From the NCBI RefSeq assembly GCF_016462955.1, contig NZ_JAEMSD010000005.1:1-49863 (forward strand): DNA of 49,863 nucleotides, read 5' to 3'. Made by a program: the position numbers and the translations under genes. The stretch comes from Bradyrhizobium sp. GTDB taxonomy: Bacteria > Pseudomonadota > Alphaproteobacteria > Rhizobiales > Xanthobacteraceae. Below the pieces are notes generated by a model that was not told the origin of the DNA, searched no databases, and saw only the letters and a program-made list of their open reading frames with translations. Of this stretch, positions 6,399 to 19,448 are shown piece after piece (within the stretch, counting starts at the first letter, position 1; each line of letters starts with the position of its first letter).

Positions 6399-7178
6399 AT
6401 GAGTACCTCGCCTCTCGCATTTGTCTTGTTGAACAAGTGGTCGACGCCGGACACGTCGGCGATCGCCAGGGTCCTTCAGGAGCGGCATCCCGAGTTGGCA
6501 ACGGAGCCGGTGGACAGTGGAGAAGAGCAACCTTCTCACGCGAATTCGCCGCTCATCCGCTGCGGCAACGAGTTGGTTGCGGTCATGTCGATGCCGGCAC
6601 CGATTCCGCAAGACCCGGGACTGTGGGCGCGCGCTGCGCGAACCTGGCCGGAAAGCGAGGCCGTGGCAACGGGCCATCAAGGTCACATCATCGTCTCGCT
6701 GCTTGGAAAAGCTGAGCAGCCGTTGGTCGCCGCCCGCCTTACGACTGCAGTGATCGGTGCGTTGATTGCCACCGTGCCGGAATGTTGCGGCGTGGTGTGG
6801 GCTGGCCGAGTGGCGCGGCCGGCTGACTTATGGCTGGAGGAGTCTCGCTGGTCGCTCGCACCATATCCGGACTATCCTTTCAGGTTATGGGTCGACATCC
6901 TTCCATTTCGGTCAGGCGCAATGGTCGGGGTTATCACGATGGGATTGGCGGCCTTCGTTGGCCGTGAGATCGAGTTCGTGACCGCTAAGCTCGCGCTTCC
7001 GGCGTTGTTCGAGAAGGTAGCAGGGCTTTCCGTATATCTGATCGAGCACGGAAGCGTGGTGAAGGACGGCGATACAATGGGAGCAAGTGCGAGCGAGCGG
7101 ATTGCAGTGCGCTACAAGAACTCTGATATTTTTGAAGGGCCGCCGGTGTTTCATTGTACGGATGAACTCGCGCACTAA
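6399..7178 (+). CDS. DUF4261-like domain protein
   Basis: C-terminal LWVDI...TMGLAAFVGREIE...YLIEHGSVVKDGDTMG pattern. Confidence 0.65.
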   Translation: MSTSPLAFVLLNKWSTPDTSAIARVLQERHPELATEPVDSGEEQPSHANSPLIRCGNELVAVMSMPAPIPQDPGLWARAARTWPESEAVATGHQGHIIVSLLGKAEQPLVAARLTTAVIGALIATVPECCGVVWAGRVARPADLWLEESRWSLAPYPDYPFRLWVDILPFRSGAMVGVITMGLAAFVGREIEFVTAKLALPALFEKVAGLSVYLIEHGSVVKDGDTMGASASERIAVRYKNSDIFEGPPVFHCTDELAH

Positions 7179-9767: not shown

Positions 9768-9842
9768 ATGATGACCGCCTACCTGATATCGCTGGCCGTC
9801 GCGGGCCTCGTTGCCATCGTGCTATGGGAGACGTTCTCGTGA
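9768..9842 (+). CDS. 24-aa single-TM peptide
   Basis: AGGAGAG RBS; MMTAYLISLAVAGLVAIVLWETFS; GTGA overlap with next gene. Confidence 0.5.
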   Translation: MMTAYLISLAVAGLVAIVLWETFS

Positions 9843-10225
9843 GCGACGACATCATCGAGGGTGAGCTTGAGCCTGCACCGGTCCGGTTGCCCGCGCGCGG
9901 GAGGACGGCGCGCGCGCGTAACCTGACGGAGATCCGCTCGCTCGCGCGCAGCCACACCAGGACGGCCATCAGGGTGCTGGTCGGCGTCATGCGCAGCGAG
10001 GAAGCAACGCCCGCGGCACGTGTCTCGGCCGCCAATGCCATCCTCGATCGCGGTTGGGGCAAGGCCGCACAGCCCGTCGAGAACGGCCAGGACGGCGTGC
10101 TGGAATTGATCCACCGGATCGAGCGCATCATCGTGCATCCGTCGAGCTCGAGTGGCGGTGATGCCGTCACGACGCTCGAGATGTCGGAGATCCCGATCTG
10201 CGATCGCGCCTCGATTGAGCGTTGA
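9839..10225 (+). CDS. Putative phage/GTA terminase small-subunit-like protein
   Basis: EIRSLARSHTRTAIRVLVGVM...ARVSAANAILDRGWGKAAQPV helical motif; its IERIIVHP-coding DNA resembles the sequence overlapping the terL start at 17304. Confidence 0.6.
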   Translation: MSDDIIEGELEPAPVRLPARGRTARARNLTEIRSLARSHTRTAIRVLVGVMRSEEATPAARVSAANAILDRGWGKAAQPVENGQDGVLELIHRIERIIVHPSSSSGGDAVTTLEMSEIPICDRASIER

Positions 10226-10308
10226 CCCGTCGGGCAAAACACGGGCAGAATGGCATCATCGACAGAAGTTGGTGTTGCCCGCGCGGAAGCAATCCGGCGC
10301 GGGTTTTT
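10222..10308 (+). repeat. 41-bp repeat, copy 5, with terminator; left boundary of cassette 1
   Basis: TTGACCCGTCGGGCAAAACACGGGCAGAATGGCATCATCGA-cagaagttggtgtt-gcccgcgcgg...ccggcgcggg-ttttt. Confidence 0.95.
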
Positions 10309-10309
10309 G

Positions 10310-10390
10310 TTTGATGCGGTCGGCAGTTCCTGGTCTGATTATCGCCCGGCCTAGGCACAGCACGTGGCCGCTGCAAGTACGAGGTATTTC
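10310..10390 (-). pseudogene. Eroded 3' remnant of the Cys-rich partner gene seen in cassettes 2 and 3
   Basis: ttgatgc..ttcctggtctg.ttatcg..gcac.tgg.cgctgcaa matches the 3' ends at 13103-13195 and 15337-15425. Confidence 0.55.
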
Positions 10391-10722: not shown

Positions 10723-11103
10723 ATGGACACTGAGCAACTCGTGGATGCGATCCCTGCGATCAATAATTTCTCGACGGTCGCATCTATCGCATGCGTGCTT
10801 CCAACATACTTTCTTCGTCTTCAGCCTGCGACTTATAGGCTCGTCCTGACATTGGGGATTGTCTTCGGTCTTTCGACGTGGGTGGTCGGAATGGCAACGG
10901 TCCTTTGGCCGCTTCCGCATCAGTTTGCCCGATGGATTGTGCTCTTTCAGCTCGTTATCTTTTCGCCGTTCGTTATTGTTCTCATTACGATACTTGCATG
11001 CATTAGGCGCGTAACCCGTGTCGGCTTATGGAGCACGGTAGTTCTGGCTTGCGTTATTTTCGACTGGCTTGGAATTTCCGGACTCATCCTGGCTCTTTCG
11101 TAG
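10723..11103 (+). CDS. Multi-TM membrane protein, paralog A (candidate immunity)
   Basis: 126 aa, highly hydrophobic, AT-richer DNA; 81/126 identical to paralog B by manual count. Confidence 0.75.
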   Translation: MDTEQLVDAIPAINNFSTVASIACVLPTYFLRLQPATYRLVLTLGIVFGLSTWVVGMATVLWPLPHQFARWIVLFQLVIFSPFVIVLITILACIRRVTRVGLWSTVVLACVIFDWLGISGLILALS

Positions 11104-11144: not shown

Positions 11145-11525
11145 ATGGACGTCGATCAATTCTTAGAAGCGATCCCTGTGACTAATAACGTCTCGACTAT
11201 CGCTTCTATCCTATGCGTGCTTCCAACATACTTTCTTCGTCTTCAGCCTGCGACCTATAGGGTTGTTCTGTCATTGGGGATTGTTTTCGGTCTTTCGATA
11301 TTTGCGATTGCAATGACAGTGGTTCTTTGGCCGTTTTCGCACGAATATCATCGATTGTTTGTATTCCATATATTTGCTTATTCTTCGCCGCTTGTCGTCG
11401 TCCTCATCGCAATACTTGCATGCATCAAGCACGTAACCCATGTCGGCTTATGGAGCACCGTGGTCCTGGTTAGCGTCGTCCTCGACTGGGCTGGAATCTC
11501 AATGCTCATCCTTGCCCTTTCGTAG
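11145..11525 (+). CDS. Multi-TM membrane protein, paralog B (candidate immunity)
   Basis: Tandem duplicate at 422-bp period; GGAG RBS. Confidence 0.75.
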   Translation: MDVDQFLEAIPVTNNVSTIASILCVLPTYFLRLQPATYRVVLSLGIVFGLSIFAIAMTVVLWPFSHEYHRLFVFHIFAYSSPLVVVLIAILACIKHVTHVGLWSTVVLVSVVLDWAGISMLILALS

Positions 11526-11577
11526 AGCCCCGCGACCGTTAAAGCGCCGTACCTGACAAGAAGAGTGAGAGACCGTC

Positions 11578-12854
11578 ATGGCGAGTAAGCTTCCATCCTA
11601 TACGCAAGGTAATCTGGCTCTGGTCCGAGGGATGACGTCTCAGATCGCCGCTGCGGCGGCGAGATACGGAGTGCCTGCCGAAGCGATCGCCGGCGCGTTG
11701 GTTCAAGAGCGGTTTGACCAGACGGACTCTTTGACGAATTACGCGAGGATGGTCGGCTCTTCCCTCGTTGCACGTGAATTCCTTGACAGGAGGTTCATTG
11801 ACGGAAGAGAACGAAACCGATTGCATCCCACGCAAGGAGCCTCCGATATTATTCTGGATAAGTACAACGCCGATCCAAATGCGATGACGGTTGGAAGGGA
11901 CATCAGGAAGAAAATCAAAAATCCTCTGCTCGTCGATTATGGCCCTGCTGGAATGAAGTTCCAGAACGCCATTCGGGCAATTCTCAATAACCCAGATGAT
12001 CCCGCCTTCGCGCAATATGTTAAGGATCTATATTCGGCCGACGTCGCTTTGCATAAAGGCAGCGATCAGGCTCTCATGGCATCAACCATCGGCGCATATT
12101 TGCGTGAAGGTGCTCGAAACTATCAGTCCAACATGAGCGTCAATGGCGATCTGACGACCGGGATCGACGCTTGGACACGTCTGGATCCGTCGACTCGAAA
12201 TGCATTGCTTGTCCAATTCTACAAGCAAGGTCCGACACCGAAGCTCGCGCTGAAAAATTCGATGATCGCGGCGCAGAACGGTGTCCCCTATGTTCCCCGG
12301 ATAGGTGTTGACGGCGCCGGAGCAACGTATCTCGCAAACGAACCTGCGATCATTCGAGCGTTGGCTGATGGGCCAGCTAGCTTCTCCGACCGCTGGAATG
12401 CGATCAACGACCGCGCGGGACGTGACTACCAGCGGTCTGTCAGGAATCCCGCAGATAGGTTCACGAATCCCGCGTCTCGTGCTGACGTGCAGCCATCAGT
12501 CGATCTCAACCCGGGCCGCCCGCATACATTCCGGAGTATCTACGGTATCTGAAAGATGCGGATCGCGTGCCTCGAACCCGTCCCGAAGACCTGCGGGTTC
12601 TGAGGAGAATGCCCGCCGGAAAGTCGGATCGATCCGTCTTCAATTCGAGCGACGGCGCGCCGGTGCCTTTTGTCTCTCCCGACGAGTCGTTTCCGCTCTC
12701 GCCACAAAGCGACTTCGAGAGGCGGTTCGGCTCGTGGCCGGCACCTGCCGGCGGCGTCCTTGCTGGTGTCTATCAAGCTCCGCAAAGCCCATCCGACTCA
12801 CTGAACAACGAAGACTGGTCCGCGATGTGGCGCAGGCGCACTGGCCTGCCTTAG
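11578..12854 (+). pseudogene. Lysozyme/SLT-like putative effector with conserved C-terminal tail, split by a 1-nt deletion near 12514-12518
   Basis: IAAAAARYGVPAEAIAGALVQE resembles the SLT catalytic-Glu helix; PAYIPEYLRYLKDADRVPRTRPEDLR...WSAMWRRRTGLP continues in the shifted frame from 12519. Confidence 0.7.
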
Positions 12855-12872
12855 GGCGAGCGAGCGTATCCA

Positions 12873-12957
12873 TTGTCCATCTTCAAGAGCCCGACGGCCG
12901 AGATCATCGAGCCGCTGCTGATGCCCGCGCGGACAAGGCGTTTACGGCGTGCGCGGC
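12873..12957 (+). pseudogene. Degenerate copy of the terL 5' end
   Basis: MSIFKSPTAEIIEPLLMPAR versus MSILRIPTAKIFEPLLQPVR at 17304; similarity ends at cgcggc in Walker A. Confidence 0.85.
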
Positions 12958-13013
12958 GCTGCGCGCGATACTTGATCTACCAGGCATCTCGATTTGAGAT
13001 TCGGATTGATCGG

Positions 13014-13099
13014 TTGACCCGTCGGGCAAAACACTGGCAGAATGGCGTCATCGACAGAAGTTGGTGTTGCCCGCGCGGTGCAATCCGGCGCGGGCTTTT
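13014..13099 (+). repeat. 41-bp repeat, copy 6, with terminator; left boundary of cassette 2
   Basis: Near-identical to copy 5 including the hairpin. Confidence 0.95.
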
Positions 13100-13114
13100 A
13101 ATTTGATGCCTCGG

Positions 13115-14095
13115 CTAATTCCTGGTCTGCTTGCTGGTCCGGCGCTGCCCGGCATAGGCGCGTTGCACCTGGTCGCTGCAATAGGACAGCTTTCGGCCGC
13201 CGCCGGTGAAATGTCCATCCTTGATGATCCAGAGGATGACGGTCCTGTCATCGATCTTCTTGAACATCAGGTTCTCGCGGTCCTGAATGGTGTTCGGGTC
13301 CTGCACGCTGACGGCTTCAGGGTCTGAAGGAGCTCGCAATGTGCAGGCGGCGTCGACCCTGACGGTGTCGGGAAGCTGAACACGCGTGCGGCGGATATCG
13401 CACTTGTTAGAGGCAGTAACGATCGACTTCCTGGCGAACGCAACGACCGTGTCGCTGAATCTCGTGCAACGGTCCTCGAAATCGGCACCCACCGCGGCGT
13501 AGACGCCATCTTGCGGATGAGCGCTCTTGAGAGTGAGTTCCTCTTCGGCCTTCCGCTTGGCTTCTTCGGCCTTCTGCTTGGCCTCTGCCTTGGCTCTCAG
13601 CGTGGCCTCAGCAAGCGCGCGCTGTGTCTTCAGAGGGCAGTAGGCCGCGCGCCAGGGAGAATCCTTGAGCTTCCCATTCAGGCTCTTCTGGACGGAGATC
13701 GCCGCCGCATCGAGCCGTTTGATGAAAATGACCTCGTTGAATTTTCTGTTCGCCCAGTTGGGATCGCGAGGGTTGAGGTTCTGTGCTAGATTGTAATCGT
13801 CACAGACCATGTCAACCTTCAGCGAGCCCGGGCCGAGGTCGGTGATCTTCTTGACGTCGCAGATCCATTCGTAACCGCTGACCGATTTCCCGCCGAGATC
13901 GATTATCAGGCCGCCGCTTTCATCGCAGTTCGACTGGAAATTCTTGCCAGGTTCGGCGTAGACACCGGGCTTGGGACGCCATTTGTCCAATGTCGGAGCG
14001 AGCGGCTCCTGTGCGAGGGCAGGAAGTGCTAGAGCGACCAGCGTAGCCGCAGAGATAGCCTGACCGAGAATTCGGCGACGAATGACTCTGTTCAC
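13115..14095 (-). CDS. Exported two-repeat Cys-rich protein (candidate immunity/inhibitor)
   Basis: GTG 14095 with GAGGGG RBS (or ATG 14137); signal peptide ending ALA-QE; two domains each starting P..GVYA..G..F...C and ending YC. Confidence 0.8.
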   Translation of the reverse strand: MNRVIRRRILGQAISAATLVALALPALAQEPLAPTLDKWRPKPGVYAEPGKNFQSNCDESGGLIIDLGGKSVSGYEWICDVKKITDLGPGSLKVDMVCDDYNLAQNLNPRDPNWANRKFNEVIFIKRLDAAAISVQKSLNGKLKDSPWRAAYCPLKTQRALAEATLRAKAEAKQKAEEAKRKAEEELTLKSAHPQDGVYAAVGADFEDRCTRFSDTVVAFARKSIVTASNKCDIRRTRVQLPDTVRVDAACTLRAPSDPEAVSVQDPNTIQDRENLMFKKIDDRTVILWIIKDGHFTGGGRKLSYCSDQVQRAYAGQRRTSKQTRN

Positions 14096-14267
14096 GCAAG
14101 TCCCCTCATTCCTCGACGCATGCCGCATGTCTTTCATGAAACCACCGCGCGCGAAATAGTTAATGGATTAACAAGAGTTGAGCAAGCTGTCGCCCGCTGG
14201 CGAAACGGCGAGGACGGCTGCTTGTCAATTCGCGTGAAGCCCTCTCGCTTTCAGAAGGATTCTCAGC

Positions 14268-15089
14268 ATGTGGGATGACATGATGCGACGTATTCTTCAG
14301 CCCGCCAGGGACATCTCGCCTCATGTTACGAGTCCATACGGCGCGGTGACAGGTAGGCCGCGTGGATCAAGCAACCCGCACCGGGGCATCGATTTCAATT
14401 ATGTTGGTGGTCAAAGCGCTCGGCTGAACACGAACCACCCGGAGTTGCGGTCTCCCGTGAATGGCGTCGTTGAGAGCGCCGGTGATGATCAATGGGGAAC
14501 AATCTCAATCAGAGACAATAACGGCTTGCGGCATCAGATCCTGCATACCAACTCTCGGCACGTTAAGGTCGGCGATGTGGTTGCGGCGGGCCAAGTGATT
14601 GGCACGATGGGTAATACCGGTCTTTTTGATATGAAGGGCAATCCAGGGCACCACCACGTCCATTATCAAATCAAGGATCGCGCAGGTAATGTTCTTGACC
14701 CCGGTGCGTTTGCGGATGCACTGGGACCGTTCGATCCAATTCCCGCGCCGGCCTACGTTCCGGAGTATCAGCGGTATCTGCAAAACGCGGATATGGTGCC
14801 GCGGATCCGTCCCGAAGATGTGCGGATCCTGAGGAGGATGCCTGCCGGAAAATCGGATCAATCCGCTTTCAACTCGAATGATCCCGTACCGGTGGTGCCC
14901 GCTATTCCGCCCGATGCTTCGTTTCCATCTTCGCCACAATCCGACTTCGAAAGACGGTACGGAAATTGGCCTTCGCCTTCCGCAGGCGGTGTCTTTGCTG
15001 GCTTCAATCAAGTGCCGCAGCGACAATCCGATACTCCGGACAGCGAGGACTGGTCCGCGATGTGGCGCAGGCGCACCGGCCTGCCTTAG
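14268..15089 (+). CDS. M23-family metallopeptidase with conserved C-terminal tail
   Basis: HRGID (HxxxD), SPVNGVV, VKVGDVVAAGQVIGTMGNTG, HVH (HxH); no signal peptide; ends EDWSAMWRRRTGLP. Confidence 0.9.
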   Translation: MWDDMMRRILQPARDISPHVTSPYGAVTGRPRGSSNPHRGIDFNYVGGQSARLNTNHPELRSPVNGVVESAGDDQWGTISIRDNNGLRHQILHTNSRHVKVGDVVAAGQVIGTMGNTGLFDMKGNPGHHHVHYQIKDRAGNVLDPGAFADALGPFDPIPAPAYVPEYQRYLQNADMVPRIRPEDVRILRRMPAGKSDQSAFNSNDPVPVVPAIPPDASFPSSPQSDFERRYGNWPSPSAGGVFAGFNQVPQRQSDTPDSEDWSAMWRRRTGLP

Positions 15090-15107
15090 GGCGAGCAATC
15101 GCATCTA

Positions 15108-15193
15108 GCGTCCATCCTGAAAATCCCGACGGTCGAGATCTTTAAGCCGTTACTGATACCCGCGCGCTACAAGGCGTTTCCGGCTGACGCGGC
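15108..15193 (+). pseudogene. Second degenerate copy of the terL 5' end (start codon lost)
   Basis: (A)SILKIPTVEIFKPLLIPARYK... Confidence 0.85.
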
Positions 15194-15247
15194 GCTGCGC
15201 TCGATACTCGATCCATCGGGCATCTCGAATTGAGATGGATTGATCGG

Positions 15248-15338
15248 TTGACCCGTCGGGCAAAACACTGGCAGAATGGCATCATCGACAGAAGTTGGTG
15301 TTGCCCGCGCGGATGCAATCCGGTGCGGGTTTTCTTTT
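15248..15338 (+). repeat. 41-bp repeat, copy 7, with terminator; left boundary of cassette 3
   Basis: Near-identical to copies 5 and 6. Confidence 0.95.
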
Positions 15339-15346
15339 GATGCCTT

Positions 15347-16309
15347 CTAATTCCTGGTCTGCTTATCGGCCGGACGCCGCCCGCCATAAGCGCGCTGCAC
15401 CTGGTCGCTGCAATAGGACAGCTTTCGGCCGTCGCCGGTGAAGCGCCCGTTGTCGATGATCCAGAGGATGACGGTCTTGTCGTCGATCTTCTTGAACATC
15501 AGGTTCTCGCGGTCCGGAGTCGTGTCCACATTTTGTACGGTGACGGCGTCTCTGTCTGGAGCCGGCTGCAATTTACAATCGGCGCCCACTCTGACGGTAT
15601 CGGGAAGCTGAACCCGCGTCCTTTCGATCTTGCAAATGTTCGAGGCAGTCGTGATCGACTTTCCGGAGAACGCAACGACGGTGTCGTTGAACTTGGTGCA
15701 GCGCTCCTCGAAATCGGCGCCGGCCGCCGCGTAGACGCCGTCCCGCGGATGGGCTTCCTTGAGGGTCCGCTCCTGGTCGGCCTTCCGCTTTGCTTCCAAC
15801 TTGGCTCTCAGCGTGGCTTCGGCAATCGCGCGCTGTGTCTCCAGAGGGCAGTAGGCGGCACGCCAGGGAGGATCTTTGACCTTCCCGTTCAAACTTTTCT
15901 GAACGGAGATCGTCGTATCATTGATCCGCTTGACGAACATGACTTCGTTGAATTGCCTGTTCTCCCAATTGGGATCGCGAGGATTGAGGTTCTGCGCCAG
16001 ATTGTAGTCGTCGCAGACCATTCCGACCTTCAGCGAGCCTGGCGCGAGATCGATGACCTGTGTGACTTTGCAGCCCCATTCGTAACCGTTGATCGATTTC
16101 TCGCCAAGATCAATGGTAAGATCGCCGCTTTCATTGCAGGACGATTGGAAATTCTTGCCGAGCTCCGCATAGACGCCGGACTTCGGGCGCCATTTGTCGG
16201 CGGTCATCGGAGATGCTTCTTGAGCAACAGCCGACAGATCGGTTGTCGACGTCAGAAGAACGATGATCGCCATCAACGACGCGCCACGTCTTCTCTCATC
16301 AGGGCCCAC
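15347..16309 (-). CDS. Exported two-repeat Cys-rich protein, paralog of 13115..14095
   Basis: Shares DKWRPK.GVYAE.GKNFQS.C, CDDYNLAQNLNPRDPNW, RKLSYCSDQVQRAY, KQTRN. Confidence 0.8.
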   Translation of the reverse strand: MGPDERRRGASLMAIIVLLTSTTDLSAVAQEASPMTADKWRPKSGVYAELGKNFQSSCNESGDLTIDLGEKSINGYEWGCKVTQVIDLAPGSLKVGMVCDDYNLAQNLNPRDPNWENRQFNEVMFVKRINDTTISVQKSLNGKVKDPPWRAAYCPLETQRAIAEATLRAKLEAKRKADQERTLKEAHPRDGVYAAAGADFEERCTKFNDTVVAFSGKSITTASNICKIERTRVQLPDTVRVGADCKLQPAPDRDAVTVQNVDTTPDRENLMFKKIDDKTVILWIIDNGRFTGDGRKLSYCSDQVQRAYGGRRPADKQTRN

Positions 16310-16465
16310 GAATAGCTCCCGCGTTTGGATGTCGAGCCGTTCGCCGACATGTTGCAGCTTTGCGTTCAGAATAGTGGAACAGCCACAAGTTGAGCAAGAG
16401 GGTTCGCTCGTGCGGGGTATCGCGCGCGGGTCTCAAGACTATGCTTCGAAGCATTGGAGAGTGGA

Positions 16466-17317
16466 ATGTCTTGGCATGATGCCTTGCGGCGAATGTTACC
16501 CCCACTTGCGGGTTTCGAGCCTCACACAACGAGCCCATATAATGCGATACGGGACCGTGGCACTTCACCCCATCAGGGCGTAGACGGAAATTACAACGTC
16601 GGCCCGAATGGGCAGCGGGGAATCAATCTGAAGCACCCTGTGTTGCGCTCCCCAGTCGACGGCATCGTGACAAACGCGGGCGAAGGTACGGCCGGTAGAA
16701 TCGCGATCAGAGACGCAAATGGCATATCGCACGAGCTTCTGCACACGCACCGCAGATTTGTCAACGTAGGCGATCCGGTCGTTGCTGGGCAACTGGTCGG
16801 CACGATGGGTAATACAGGCGTGATCCAACCGTATATCGAAAGCGGCGATCATCATCTTCATTATCAGTTGAAGGACCCCGCCGGTCGTGGACTCAATCCT
16901 CAGGCGTACTGGGAGCAGCAAGGACCAATAGATCCAAATCCGGCGGCTCCTGCCTATGTTGACGAGTATCGCCACTATATGCGCGATGCAGGCGCCATTC
17001 CTGCAACGTCTCGAAAAGATGTGAGAGTTCTGAGGAGAATACCCGACCGCGCAATGGAGCGGTCGTCATTCAATTCGAAGCCCGTTGAGGTGCCCTACAG
17101 CGGCTCCAATTCTTCCCGTCCATCCGCTATTGAAAACCATTTCAGGAGGCTTCTTGGACTTTGGCCGCCTTTCTCGGAGCACGACGCCTCTTCCGACTTG
17201 ACCCGAACCCAACAAGGCCAATCCGAGACCTTCGACAACGAAGACTGGTCCGCGATGTGGCGCAGGGCGCACTGGCCTGCCCTAGGGCGAGCGAGCGCAG
17301 CCATTGTCCATCCTTAG
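16466..17317 (+). CDS. M23-family metallopeptidase with conserved tail; +1 frameshift alters the last residues
   Basis: GGAG RBS, MSWHDAL; HQGVD, VGDPVVAGQLVGTMGNTG, HLH; EDWSAMWRR then extra G at 17265-17267. Confidence 0.88.
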   Translation: MSWHDALRRMLPPLAGFEPHTTSPYNAIRDRGTSPHQGVDGNYNVGPNGQRGINLKHPVLRSPVDGIVTNAGEGTAGRIAIRDANGISHELLHTHRRFVNVGDPVVAGQLVGTMGNTGVIQPYIESGDHHLHYQLKDPAGRGLNPQAYWEQQGPIDPNPAAPAYVDEYRHYMRDAGAIPATSRKDVRVLRRIPDRAMERSSFNSKPVEVPYSGSNSSRPSAIENHFRRLLGLWPPFSEHDASSDLTRTQQGQSETFDNEDWSAMWRRAHWPALGRASAAIVHP

Positions 17318-17951
17318 AATTCCAACGGCGAAGATCTTCGAGCCATTGCTGCAACCGGTCCGCTACAAGGGCGTTTATGGCGGACGCGGCTCGGGCAAAT
17401 CGCATTTCTTCGGCGAGCTCCTGGTCGAGACCTGCCAGGCCGAGCGCGGCACGCTCGCGGTCTGTATTCGCGAGGCGCAGCGCACGCTGGCGCAATCGTC
17501 CAAGCGTCTGATAGAAGGCAAGATTGCAAGCCTTCGCCTCGGGCATGGCTTCAAGCTGTTCAGCGACAAGATCGAGACGCCCGGCGACGGGCTCATCATT
17601 TTCCGCGGACTTCAGGATCACACGGCCGACTCGATCAAATCCCTGGAGGGATTTCGCATTGCCTGGATCGACGAGGCGCAATCCTTGAGCGCGCGCAGCC
17701 TCGCGCTGCTGCGGCCGACGATCCGTGCCAAGGACTCCGAGCTGTGGGCGAGCTGGAACGGCCTTCAGCGCAGATTGATGCGTGTCGTCGAGGCAAGGGG
17801 ACGGCGGTTCGGCTGGGACAGCATCGTTTCCGACACAACGGACAACGCAGTATCCGCCAACAACTTCATCCAGGCAGGCTATCGGCTCTTCGAGCCCGAG
17901 ACGCCATGGGCGTGGGCGCATACGCTCTATTGGAGAAAGCGGCTTCGCTGA
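17304..17951 (+). pseudogene. terL: Truncated PBSX-type terminase large subunit (152-aa ATPase part) fused in frame to a GNAT acetyltransferase C-terminus
   Basis: Walker A YGGRGSGKSHF, Walker B AWIDEAQ, ELWASWN; from 17760 GLQRRLMR...SDTTDNAVSANNFIQAGY is GNAT-like; nuclease domain absent. Confidence 0.8.
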
Positions 17952-18179: not shown

Positions 18180-19448
18180 ATGCCCACCAAACCTCAATTG
18201 CCGGAACGTTCAATGAGAGGGACAGGCGAGCCGGCTGCGCTCGATGGTCTATTGGTCGTCGATTTTACGCGGGTGGTCGCCGGACCGGCCTGTACCCAGA
18301 CGCTTGCCGATTTCGGCGCGCACGTCATCAAGATCGAGAATCCCGACGGCGGCGACGACACGCGCGCCTACGAGCAGGCCGAAATCGGCGGCGAAAGCGC
18401 CGCCTTTCTCAGCCTGAACCGCAACAAGCGTGGCATTGCGCTCGATCTTGCCGTGCCGGAGGCCCGCCAGATCGCGATCGACCTGATCCGCAAGGCGGAT
18501 GTGGTCGTCGAGAATTTCTCGAGCGGGGTCATGAAGAAGTTCGGGCTCGACTATGAGTCGGTCGCGCCGCTCAATCCACGGCTAGTGTATTGCTCGATCT
18601 CCGCCTACGGACGCACTGGACCGTTCGCCTCGCGGCCTGGCTTCGATCCCATCACGCAGGCGGAAAGCGGCTTCATGTCGCTCAACGGATTTGCCGACGG
18701 CCCGGCGGTGCGCACCGGCCCGCCCATCGTGGACATGGCGACCGGGATGTCCGCCTGCAACGCCATTCTGCTTGCGCTGCTGGCACGCGACCGGCTCGGC
18801 CGCGGGCAGCATGTCGAGGTCGCCCTGTTCGACGTCGCGATCGGAATGACCGGTTTCTATGGGATGGCCTACCTCATCAACGGCGAAAACCCCGGTCGCT
18901 TCGGGAATTCGCCGAGCGGGTCACCCACGGTCGGGGTCTATGAGGCCTCTGACGGACCGCTCTACATGGCCTGCGCCAACGACCGGCTCTACCGACGGCT
19001 CGTGGTCGAGGTGCTGAACCGGCCCGATCTCATTACCGATCCGCAGTTTGCGACGCGCAAGGCCCGTTCGGAGAACAAGGAGCTCCTGCGGGCTGCCATT
19101 GCGGATGTTTTCGCGAGCGATACCCTCGAGAACTGGATGGCAAAGATGAAGCTGGCCAATATTCCGGTGGGCTATCTCCGGACAGTCGAAGAGGGCTTCA
19201 ATGCGCCCGAGGCTCGTGAGCGCCATCGCCTGAGCCGGATTCCGCACCCCACGGCTGAATGGGTGCCGAACATCGAGCCGCCGATCTTGATGAGCCTGAC
19301 CGGCGCGATCGATCCCGTTGCGGCCCCGCTGTTGGGCGAGCACACGAAGCAAGTCCTGCAGGATACGCTCGGCTACGACGAACGTCGGATCGCGGAGTTC
19401 GCCGAGAAAGGCGCCTTTGGCGCGGTCAAGCCCCCGACTTCGGCTTGA
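18180..19448 (+). CDS. CaiB/BaiF family III CoA-transferase
   Basis: LDGLLVVDFTRVVAGP, LADFGAHVIKIE, NRNKRGI, ADVVVENF, GFD catalytic Asp. Confidence 0.92.
   Translation: MPTKPQLPERSMRGTGEPAALDGLLVVDFTRVVAGPACTQTLADFGAHVIKIENPDGGDDTRAYEQAEIGGESAAFLSLNRNKRGIALDLAVPEARQIAIDLIRKADVVVENFSSGVMKKFGLDYESVAPLNPRLVYCSISAYGRTGPFASRPGFDPITQAESGFMSLNGFADGPAVRTGPPIVDMATGMSACNAILLALLARDRLGRGQHVEVALFDVAIGMTGFYGMAYLINGENPGRFGNSPSGSPTVGVYEASDGPLYMACANDRLYRRLVVEVLNRPDLITDPQFATRKARSENKELLRAAIADVFASDTLENWMAKMKLANIPVGYLRTVEEGFNAPEARERHRLSRIPHPTAEWVPNIEPPILMSLTGAIDPVAAPLLGEHTKQVLQDTLGYDERRIAEFAEKGAFGAVKPPTSA

Follow-up and report, generated by a model that had tools for sequence, protein, structure and literature searches.

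A shared C-terminal tail on toxin-like proteins of a phage-derived gene cluster in Bradyrhizobium is a candidate signal for loading cargo into a particle

Here, we present a computational analysis of three homologous C-terminal tails of ~110 residues that are encoded in a 49,863-nucleotide stretch of the genome of Bradyrhizobium sp. (assembly GCF_016462955.1, contig NZ_JAEMSD010000005.1, positions 1 to 49,863; hereafter, the window). The tails are a real feature and part of a phage-derived polymorphic toxin system in a new form. Because wall hydrolases and nucleases share the tail, and because it is found here only in a virion gene cluster, we read it as a particle address; with moderate confidence, we propose that it is a signal by which a domesticated phage particle would be loaded with toxin-like cargo and carry this to rival bacteria, with loading, ejection, killing, and immunity all being steps that we infer. 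Of the two signaling roles for which an earlier, sequence-only reading of this DNA had made room, secretion and particle loading, the latter fits the genomic context as judged from gene content and position. This genome itself keeps the cassettes alone; the particle genes are lost, and the local copy is a relic.

Results

The three tails lie on the forward strand at 12519-12854 (copy 1), 14748-15089 (copy 2), and 16949-17285 (copy 3). Comparisons between the copies bear out the homology first seen by eye, with tblastn E values of 1e-17 to 1e-46, and copy 2 is 72% identical to copy 1 and 44% identical to copy 3. A six-frame search of the 7.4-Mb genome with a hidden Markov model (HMM) and tblastn found no fourth copy, the best other match having an E value of 0.14. 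The sequence-only reading had placed the tails on unrelated enzyme domains, which does not hold: heads 2 and 3 are both Peptidase_M23 and 52% identical, while head 1 is SLT-like. Copy 2 is intact and in frame with its head. Copy 1 is out of frame with head 1, the open reading frame (ORF) at 11578-12552 being one base short at ~12513-12518; relatives hold intact head-tail fusions of the head 1 type with 426 amino acids (aa), and the frame break recurs, without difference, in contigs from all four of the other DNA runs. In copy 3, an extra G at 17265-17267 changes the end from RRRTGLP to MWRRAHWP..., and the ORF extends to 17317; contigs of the same four runs carry the extra base, with fewer than 31 letters on the left side, which falls below our standard for bridging.

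The tail is not confined to recent duplicates in the window, as its profile matches 36 of 400 other genomes of the genus (a few of them weakly), and it is not a known nontargeting domain, as it matches no Pfam, PHROG, or NCBIfam family. Named homologues of the tail genes are all from Bradyrhizobium. We found no match in 50,697 phage and 72,556 plasmid records and no usable match in the ESM Atlas; a profile search of 1.84 billion representatives gave 23 matches, and 14 of the 19 new or distant ones were read and look like the same family. An iterated HMM identified 87 ORF segments (84 in 43 fetched loci and the three in the window), of which 86 end at most 60 aa from the C-terminus, and none elsewhere in this genome. 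The 64 heads of at least 70 aa form 14 clusters, two of which consist of fragments, leaving about a dozen real families; one head pairs with different tails and one tail with different heads, and the distant members P0047, P0051, and P0058 carry two to four tandem tail units in one protein. An AHH-nuclease-like cargo encoded upstream of the small terminase gene terS ends in a tail with the same motifs in the same order (profile match probability, 94.6; E value, 7e-8). Among 45 GTDB loci for this second tail, the titled ones are all from Bradyrhizobium or unresolved relatives, and 38 have terS, the large terminase gene terL, a portal gene, or a capsid gene within 6 kb.

The earlier reading had named selection on the tail as a check, and selection is purifying: the pooled ratio of nonsynonymous to synonymous divergence (dN/dS) is 0.30 (codon bootstrap, 0.24-0.37; 15 intact tails), compared with 1.15, 1.34, and 0.99 in control frames that were shifted or reversed. 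By part, dN/dS is 0.22 over codons 1-45 and 0.37 over the middle section. In an AlphaFold2 prediction made with 26 sequences, the M23 head folds, while the predicted local distance difference test (pLDDT) score is below 50 over most of the tail; three short helices are predicted at the motifs PAY..EY..Y, F.RR.G.W, and EDWSAMW, and the tail is predicted to be disordered.

The sequence-only reading had likened the tail to type IV secretion signals and suggested a co-occurrence analysis that also took in type VI genes; the secretion analogy fares poorly. In its favor, the layout resembles that of the XVIPCD of X-Tfes, a C-terminal region of ~110-120 aa on variable N-terminal antibacterial enzymes that have immunity partners (PMC8740702), and VirD4-family genes occur in 24 of the 31 tail-bearing genomes, this one included. 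However, the remaining 7 of 31, among them G221 with its near-complete cluster, gave no VirD4 match, the type VI sheath gene VipB occurs in just 4 of the 31, and the tail is located at the terminase site, not beside secretion genes. Moreover, unlike the XVIPCD, the tail has no PF20410 match at an E value of 0.1, no predicted folded core, no Gln-rich end (Gln content, 4.4%), and no virB/D4 linkage, and the net charge of its last 20 residues is −2 to +1. A genome search for PF20410 found it in none of five genomes, in a setting in which no control gave a signal either. We therefore consider a VirB/D4 or type VI secretion signal highly improbable.

The end of the tail behaves differently from the rest at the DNA level. 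The claim that the last ~45 nucleotides (nt) are almost identical stands for copies 1 and 2, which differ at 2 of 45 sites, and fails for copy 3, which carries the extra base. Beyond the stop codon, near-identity runs in all three copies into an 18-nt spacer and the terL 5' end, and each tail ends about 18 nt before a terL start. Because the last 16 tail codons show less than half the synonymous divergence found elsewhere (0.23 versus 0.55-0.60), we conclude that the tail end is homogenized at the DNA level. The window cassettes are nearer to different donor genomes than to one another, tail 1 being 92% identical to L048 and 77% identical to tail 2; together with terL remnants, these different closest donors of the three cassettes indicate arrays of alternative cassettes built by recombination. 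The last 16 codons and the spacer are likely a recombination anchor for stacking: cassettes from relatives would stack via homologous recombination, with homology supplied on the left by a ~100-bp repeat and on the right by the tail end, the spacer, and the start of terL. This is the part of the tail for which the "recombination handle" of the sequence-only reading appears to hold, as the particle-loading role appears to do for another part. If the tail were a recombination scaffold only, that is, shared DNA for head swapping in front of terL, its protein-level constraint would reflect a harmless open frame. The low synonymous divergence, the identity into spacer and terL, and the diversity of donors all fit this explanation, and yet dN/dS is also low well away from terL, over codons 1-45 and the middle section, homologous tails with the same motif order occupy other slots with other flanks, and tail copies occur in tandem within one protein; we regard it as quite unlikely.

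In relatives, the cluster comprises terL, a two-gene portal, a 99-aa gene, and SU10-type capsid, head-closure, tail-fibre, and tail-tube-like genes, together with gp7-like, scaffold-like, collar-domain spike, lysis, and GNAT-like genes, and a CoA-transferase gene follows. Its proteins match terminase, portal, SU10-type capsid, tail fibre, collar, and virion protein families; the labels gp4, gp7, gp10, gp16, gp20, and scaffold are ones that we presume from position and P22 biology. In a survey of 47 genomes, many of them fetched partly, each of the 14 core genes is covered to at least 89% by one stop-free match in G194, G190, G301, G005, and G337. Compared with G221, the present genome lacks ~38 kb between the middle of terL and the GNAT-like gene. 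The terL family occurs in 173 of 400 genomes of the genus, some of these cases being ordinary prophages. For the cluster, we found a fixed site, vertical descent (across 26 genomes, distances in terL follow those in the adjacent CoA-transferase gene; Spearman, 0.85; Mantel p, 0.001), purifying selection (core-gene dN/dS, 0.10-0.16), and no integrase match in or beside five of five clusters checked; replication genes were likewise judged absent by eye from ORF lists. Pairs of toxin- and immunity-like genes sit between its structural genes, and we read the cluster as a podophage module that has been domesticated and that internal deletion often removes.

The tails are tied to this site. The genus search gave 29 tail loci, and 28 of these, like all 10 loci from IMG/VR, have a terS, terL, or portal gene in the fetched flank; the 29th locus (L040) is inside an array that adjoins terL. 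Because terS overlaps terL at the cargo-free junction of eight relatives and of phage OP596614.1, and because the spacer after each tail repeats this overlap, we interpret the cassettes as insertions into the terS-terL junction. Two-tail arrays are present in G217, G086, and G116. As separate observations on the cluster, the portal is encoded by two genes (~185-190 aa and ~555 aa) in both OP596614.1 and the cluster, with cargo between the halves (L048:14136-14711 with L125:1112-2788; L220:19031-21246), and L076 has a fused 744-aa form. In L040, L042, L049, L052, L055, and L056, the same deletion fuses terL at residue ~275 to a holin-like gene; the genomes with this fusion do not form a single group in the trees, and the fusion often leaves the frame open.

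A domesticated cluster of this kind could also be a gene transfer agent or a decaying prophage, in which the cargo would be wall-piercing virion enzymes and passengers that aid DNA entry, with the tail still loading them. Consistent with this, the terminase is retained, all three heads in the window are likely wall hydrolases, and one SLT head among the cargo is homologous to the prophage virion SLT. From one B. japonicum strain, short-tailed particles have been described that contain DNA from across the chromosome at even coverage (bioRxiv 2022.05.06.490963), and these may be linked to this cluster. BaGTA is similar in being a domesticated head and terminase cluster at a fixed site under purifying selection (PMC3610622); the cluster here has the genomic traits of a gene transfer agent, with DNA transfer being putative, and differs from BaGTA in its toxin/immunity-like arrays between structural genes, its split portal, and its frequent internal deletion. 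Against transfer or decay, head-specific partners, nuclease and ADP-ribosyltransferase cargo with SMI1-type genes, and cassette stacking suit conflict better than entry, and we give this explanation a low probability.

By capsid, the nearest cultured phage is ppBeUSDA76-2 (OP596614.1; 69%), which has been reported as podovirus-like (bioRxiv 2022.05.06.490963). Unlike the cluster, it has an integrase, recombination genes, and early genes. Related phages encode GH24, SLT, and other lysozyme heads on one Pro-rich C-terminal tail in the ejection-gene block (30 proteins in four head clusters). This virion lysozyme family thus shares with the cargo the principle of swappable heads on a common C-terminal tail; however, the two tails lack detectable homology, and the phage genes lack immunity-like partner genes. 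We also considered whether the tail descends from this lysozyme tail or from other phage genes, and detected no such descent. As judged by eye, a GGLLG motif of the cargo resembles the start of gp20-like genes.

Toxin-type domains in the cluster include M23, transglycosylase, a weak AHH match, WHH accompanied by SMI1_KNR4, and Tox-ART-HYD1. In the right half of the cluster, cargo-like ORFs terminate in PPIF, a shorter motif that is absent from the tail; 24 of 26 matches of this motif lie within 30 aa of the stop, and it occurs 25 times per million residues, compared with 0.4 in the control. PPIF is a possible second loading motif. In L173-L202, many cargo-like ORFs end in PPIFFPF, and a PPIF-like motif is also seen in the AHH-cargo tail and in a phage lysozyme tail (L215). 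A second cargo class, encoded after the portal, has an N-terminal motif of the type DYSLVPV[DE]HQPDF and a C-terminal WHH nuclease or Tox-ART-HYD1 domain; its genes occur with SMI1_KNR4, DUF6881, or DUF4926 genes, stacked among repeated portal 3' fragments (L044:18461-19923; L047:1501-8166). In 35 of 48 IMG/VR loci, the scaffold-like gene directly follows the gp7-like gene, having shifted from its place after the portal to the slot that gp20/gp16-like genes take in prophages (L125:18780-19640; L126:138-839; L172-L216).

In the window, all features of the region are on the forward strand unless stated otherwise, and their order is terS, three cassettes (A, B, and C), and a shortened terL. Each cassette is built from a ~100-bp repeat, a partner gene, a head with its tail, the 18-nt spacer, and a terL 5' end, which is decayed in cassettes A and B. 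The small terminase-like gene terS (9839-10225; phrog_15261, E value of 4e-12) marks the left end of the cluster, has the same position in relatives, and weakly matches the gene preceding terL in phage OP596614.1. Cassette A starts with a repeat that has a terminator-like hairpin (10222-10317) and encodes two copies of a hydrophobic 126-aa membrane protein, the likely immunity partner of the SLT-like head (10723-11103 and 11145-11525; 64% identical); this partner and the SLT-like head occur together in six of eight loci that have either, and the partner is present at six of seven SLT-like loci. Head 1 (11578-12518) is likely SLT/lysozyme-like and has intact 426-aa homologues, its own ORF stopping at 12552 after the frameshift at ~12513-12518. 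It has no Pfam or PDB match, a PDB profile search gave nothing useful, and the ESM Atlas feature matches to SLT clusters at 0.91-0.93 are a lead only; the AlphaFold2 model of the SLT-like head (12 sequences) has a mean pLDDT of 34. Cassette A closes with a spacer that is a relic of the terS 3' end and with a decayed terL 5' fragment (12855-12950).

Cassette B consists of a repeat (13014-13111), a likely periplasmic immunity gene on the reverse strand (13115-14137) with a signal-peptide-like N-terminus and, by alignment, two Cys-containing repeats, head 2 (M23 peptidase, 14268-14747; PF01551, E value of 1e-13; pLDDT mostly 83-94), tail copy 2, and a spacer with a decayed terL 5' fragment (15090-15180). 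In cassette C, a repeat (15248-15345) is followed by a second copy of the two-repeat likely immunity gene (15347-16309, reverse strand; 72% identical), head 3 (M23 peptidase of a second subtype, 16466-16948; PF01551, E value of 2e-11), and tail copy 3. The two-repeat partner accompanies M23 in 22 of 24 M23 loci. A predicted M23-partner complex scored 0.60, compared with 0.07 for the best control, with at least 85% of contacts agreeing between runs and a partner pLDDT of at least 81; in calibration, pairs reaching the mark comprised 116 of 157 solved and 2 of 215 mismatched ones, but those that did so with a score of no more than 0.60 were only 18 solved pairs and both mismatches, and the model therefore counts as weak support. 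The partner genes are head-specific and would confer immunity. On the right, the terL 5' part (17304-17951; Terminase_3, E value of 1e-18) is joined at ~17757 to the end of the GNAT-like last gene of the cluster, and the CoA-transferase gene (18180-19448) is the conserved right flank outside the cluster.

The ~100-bp repeat has no Rfam match and is not specific to the cluster, there being 38 core copies in the genome. It starts with TTGAC and is dispersed over the window (7226, 8981, 9308, 9438, 10222, 13014, and 15248, with a weak copy at 1342); an FAD monooxygenase gene lies between copies, and those in the cluster add the terminator-like hairpin and resemble a promoter, a short RNA, and a terminator. 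An orphan DUF4261 gene is found at 6399-7178, after which most relatives have a 550-600-aa AHH-like gene with a related tail that is missing here. DNA near-identical to 11500-17400 of the window occurs in drinking-water, aquifer, and variously host-labelled runs, suggesting a water or reagent strain; cover in four RNA or possible-RNA runs is thin and even and could derive from DNA.

Discussion

In the mechanism that we propose, the cluster would make short-tailed particles that its lysis genes release. The short motifs of the tail would bind an assembly protein (scaffold, coat, or portal), much as P22 ejection proteins enter procapsids through the scaffold (PMC8402733). Upon ejection into a target, wall hydrolases would act in the periplasm and nucleases in the cytoplasm, and the partner genes would give immunity.

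Several observations weigh against the proposal that the tail loads a particle. Among the 31 tail-bearing genomes, a capsid gene was found in only 8, and this genome (88% complete) is not one of them; the majority of the 15 intact tails belong to genomes without a capsid gene, indicating that the tail persists without a particle; recent loss, continued import, selection for immunity, or a particle-independent role may account for this persistence. Frameshifted or truncated tails and heads are numerous. The tails behind the pooled dN/dS of 0.30 were picked by pattern for intactness and are not phylogenetically independent, the sets behind the core-gene values of 0.10-0.16 take in prophage sequences and old history, and there is some circularity in the motif controls. 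Homology to the tail was seen neither in the phage lysozyme tail (hhalign probability, <0.2) nor in any ORF of OP596614.1. Because the right-half cargo has PPIF and not the tail, for which the HMM found nothing in 48 loci centered on that half, a single loading signal cannot cover all cargo; in addition, a search of 20 clusters, several of them fetched in part, turned up no counterparts of the gp20/gp16-like ejection genes seen in prophages, and the ejection route is therefore putative. In P22, gp7 and gp20 assemble via N-terminal and not C-terminal parts (PMC8402733). The particle is predicted here from its genes, and the binding partner of the tail is putative.

Some of these points would suit soluble bacteriocins, that is, cargo released by lysis beside the particles, with the disordered tail being an uptake or translocation region at the target. 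Colicins have unstructured domains that act in uptake or translocation. The tail is disordered in prediction and has aromatic motifs, it persists in the 23 of 31 genomes in which a capsid gene was not found, and deletions often leave the holin-like end of the cluster. On the other hand, the endolysin-like gene is usually gone together with the capsid, cargo genes are inserted at numerous virion-operon junctions, with none in the rest of this genome, and one tail family serves both periplasmic and cytoplasmic heads. We consider soluble bacteriocins rather unlikely.

The feature resembles the head-borne MuF toxins and XVIPCD addressing in how it would work but belongs to neither group. MuF toxins are encoded in the terminase-portal-capsid module, and it has been proposed that the phage head carries them for use against competitors (PMC3482391, PMC5576092); the tail-bearing cargo is likewise encoded in the head-packaging module. 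However, no MuF domain (PF04233) was found in the scanned cargo or core proteins, the one match in five genomes being on another contig; here, what is conserved is a disordered tail at the C-terminus, the enzyme being N-terminal, cargo occupies many junctions, and the host is a fixed, integrase-free chromosomal cluster rather than a temperate phage. P22 gp7, gp16, and gp20 enter the head interior through an assembly protein, as we propose for the cargo, and differ in that their signals are N-terminal (PMC8402733). With polymorphic toxin systems, the feature shares about a dozen head families on one tail family, for which a trafficking role is what we would expect; a partner gene accompanies 22 of 24 M23 and 6 of 7 SLT-like loci and SMI1_KNR4 stands beside WHH, while the complex prediction is weak. 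Tailocins and extracellular contractile injection systems (eCIS) are chromosomal phage-derived weapons that are released by lysis, and the toxin cargo of eCIS carries short signals. The cluster resembles both in being chromosomal, phage-derived, and equipped with lysis genes; in contrast to them, full clusters keep capsid, portal, and terminase and are of short-tailed phage origin, whereas a tailocin is a particle without a head that consists of a tail alone. An idea based on Lipocone was dropped, there being no relevant passage in the main text of its paper.

More tentatively, and with somewhat less than even confidence, we suggest a broader picture in which the cluster would encode a headed toxin-delivery particle derived from a short-tailed phage, a capsid-based counterpart of tailocins and eCIS. 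Such a particle would have dropped the large DNA-ejection proteins, and its head would carry at least a dozen antibacterial enzymes, each with an address in a portable code of disordered peptides to which this tail belongs; genomes that lack the capsid, this one among them, would keep stacked cassettes as immunity. We found no description of the cluster or the tail in the literature, subscription papers and supplements aside. Head-borne delivery has so far been proposed, from sequence, for MuF toxins; the cluster is a different case with a defined candidate loading signal. The host is a culturable crop symbiont, and the value lies in the intact clusters of its relatives. If our proposal is correct, the tail would provide a short tag for loading proteins into capsids, and the cluster would add a class of interbacterial weapon that may bear on the competition between inoculant and native rhizobia.

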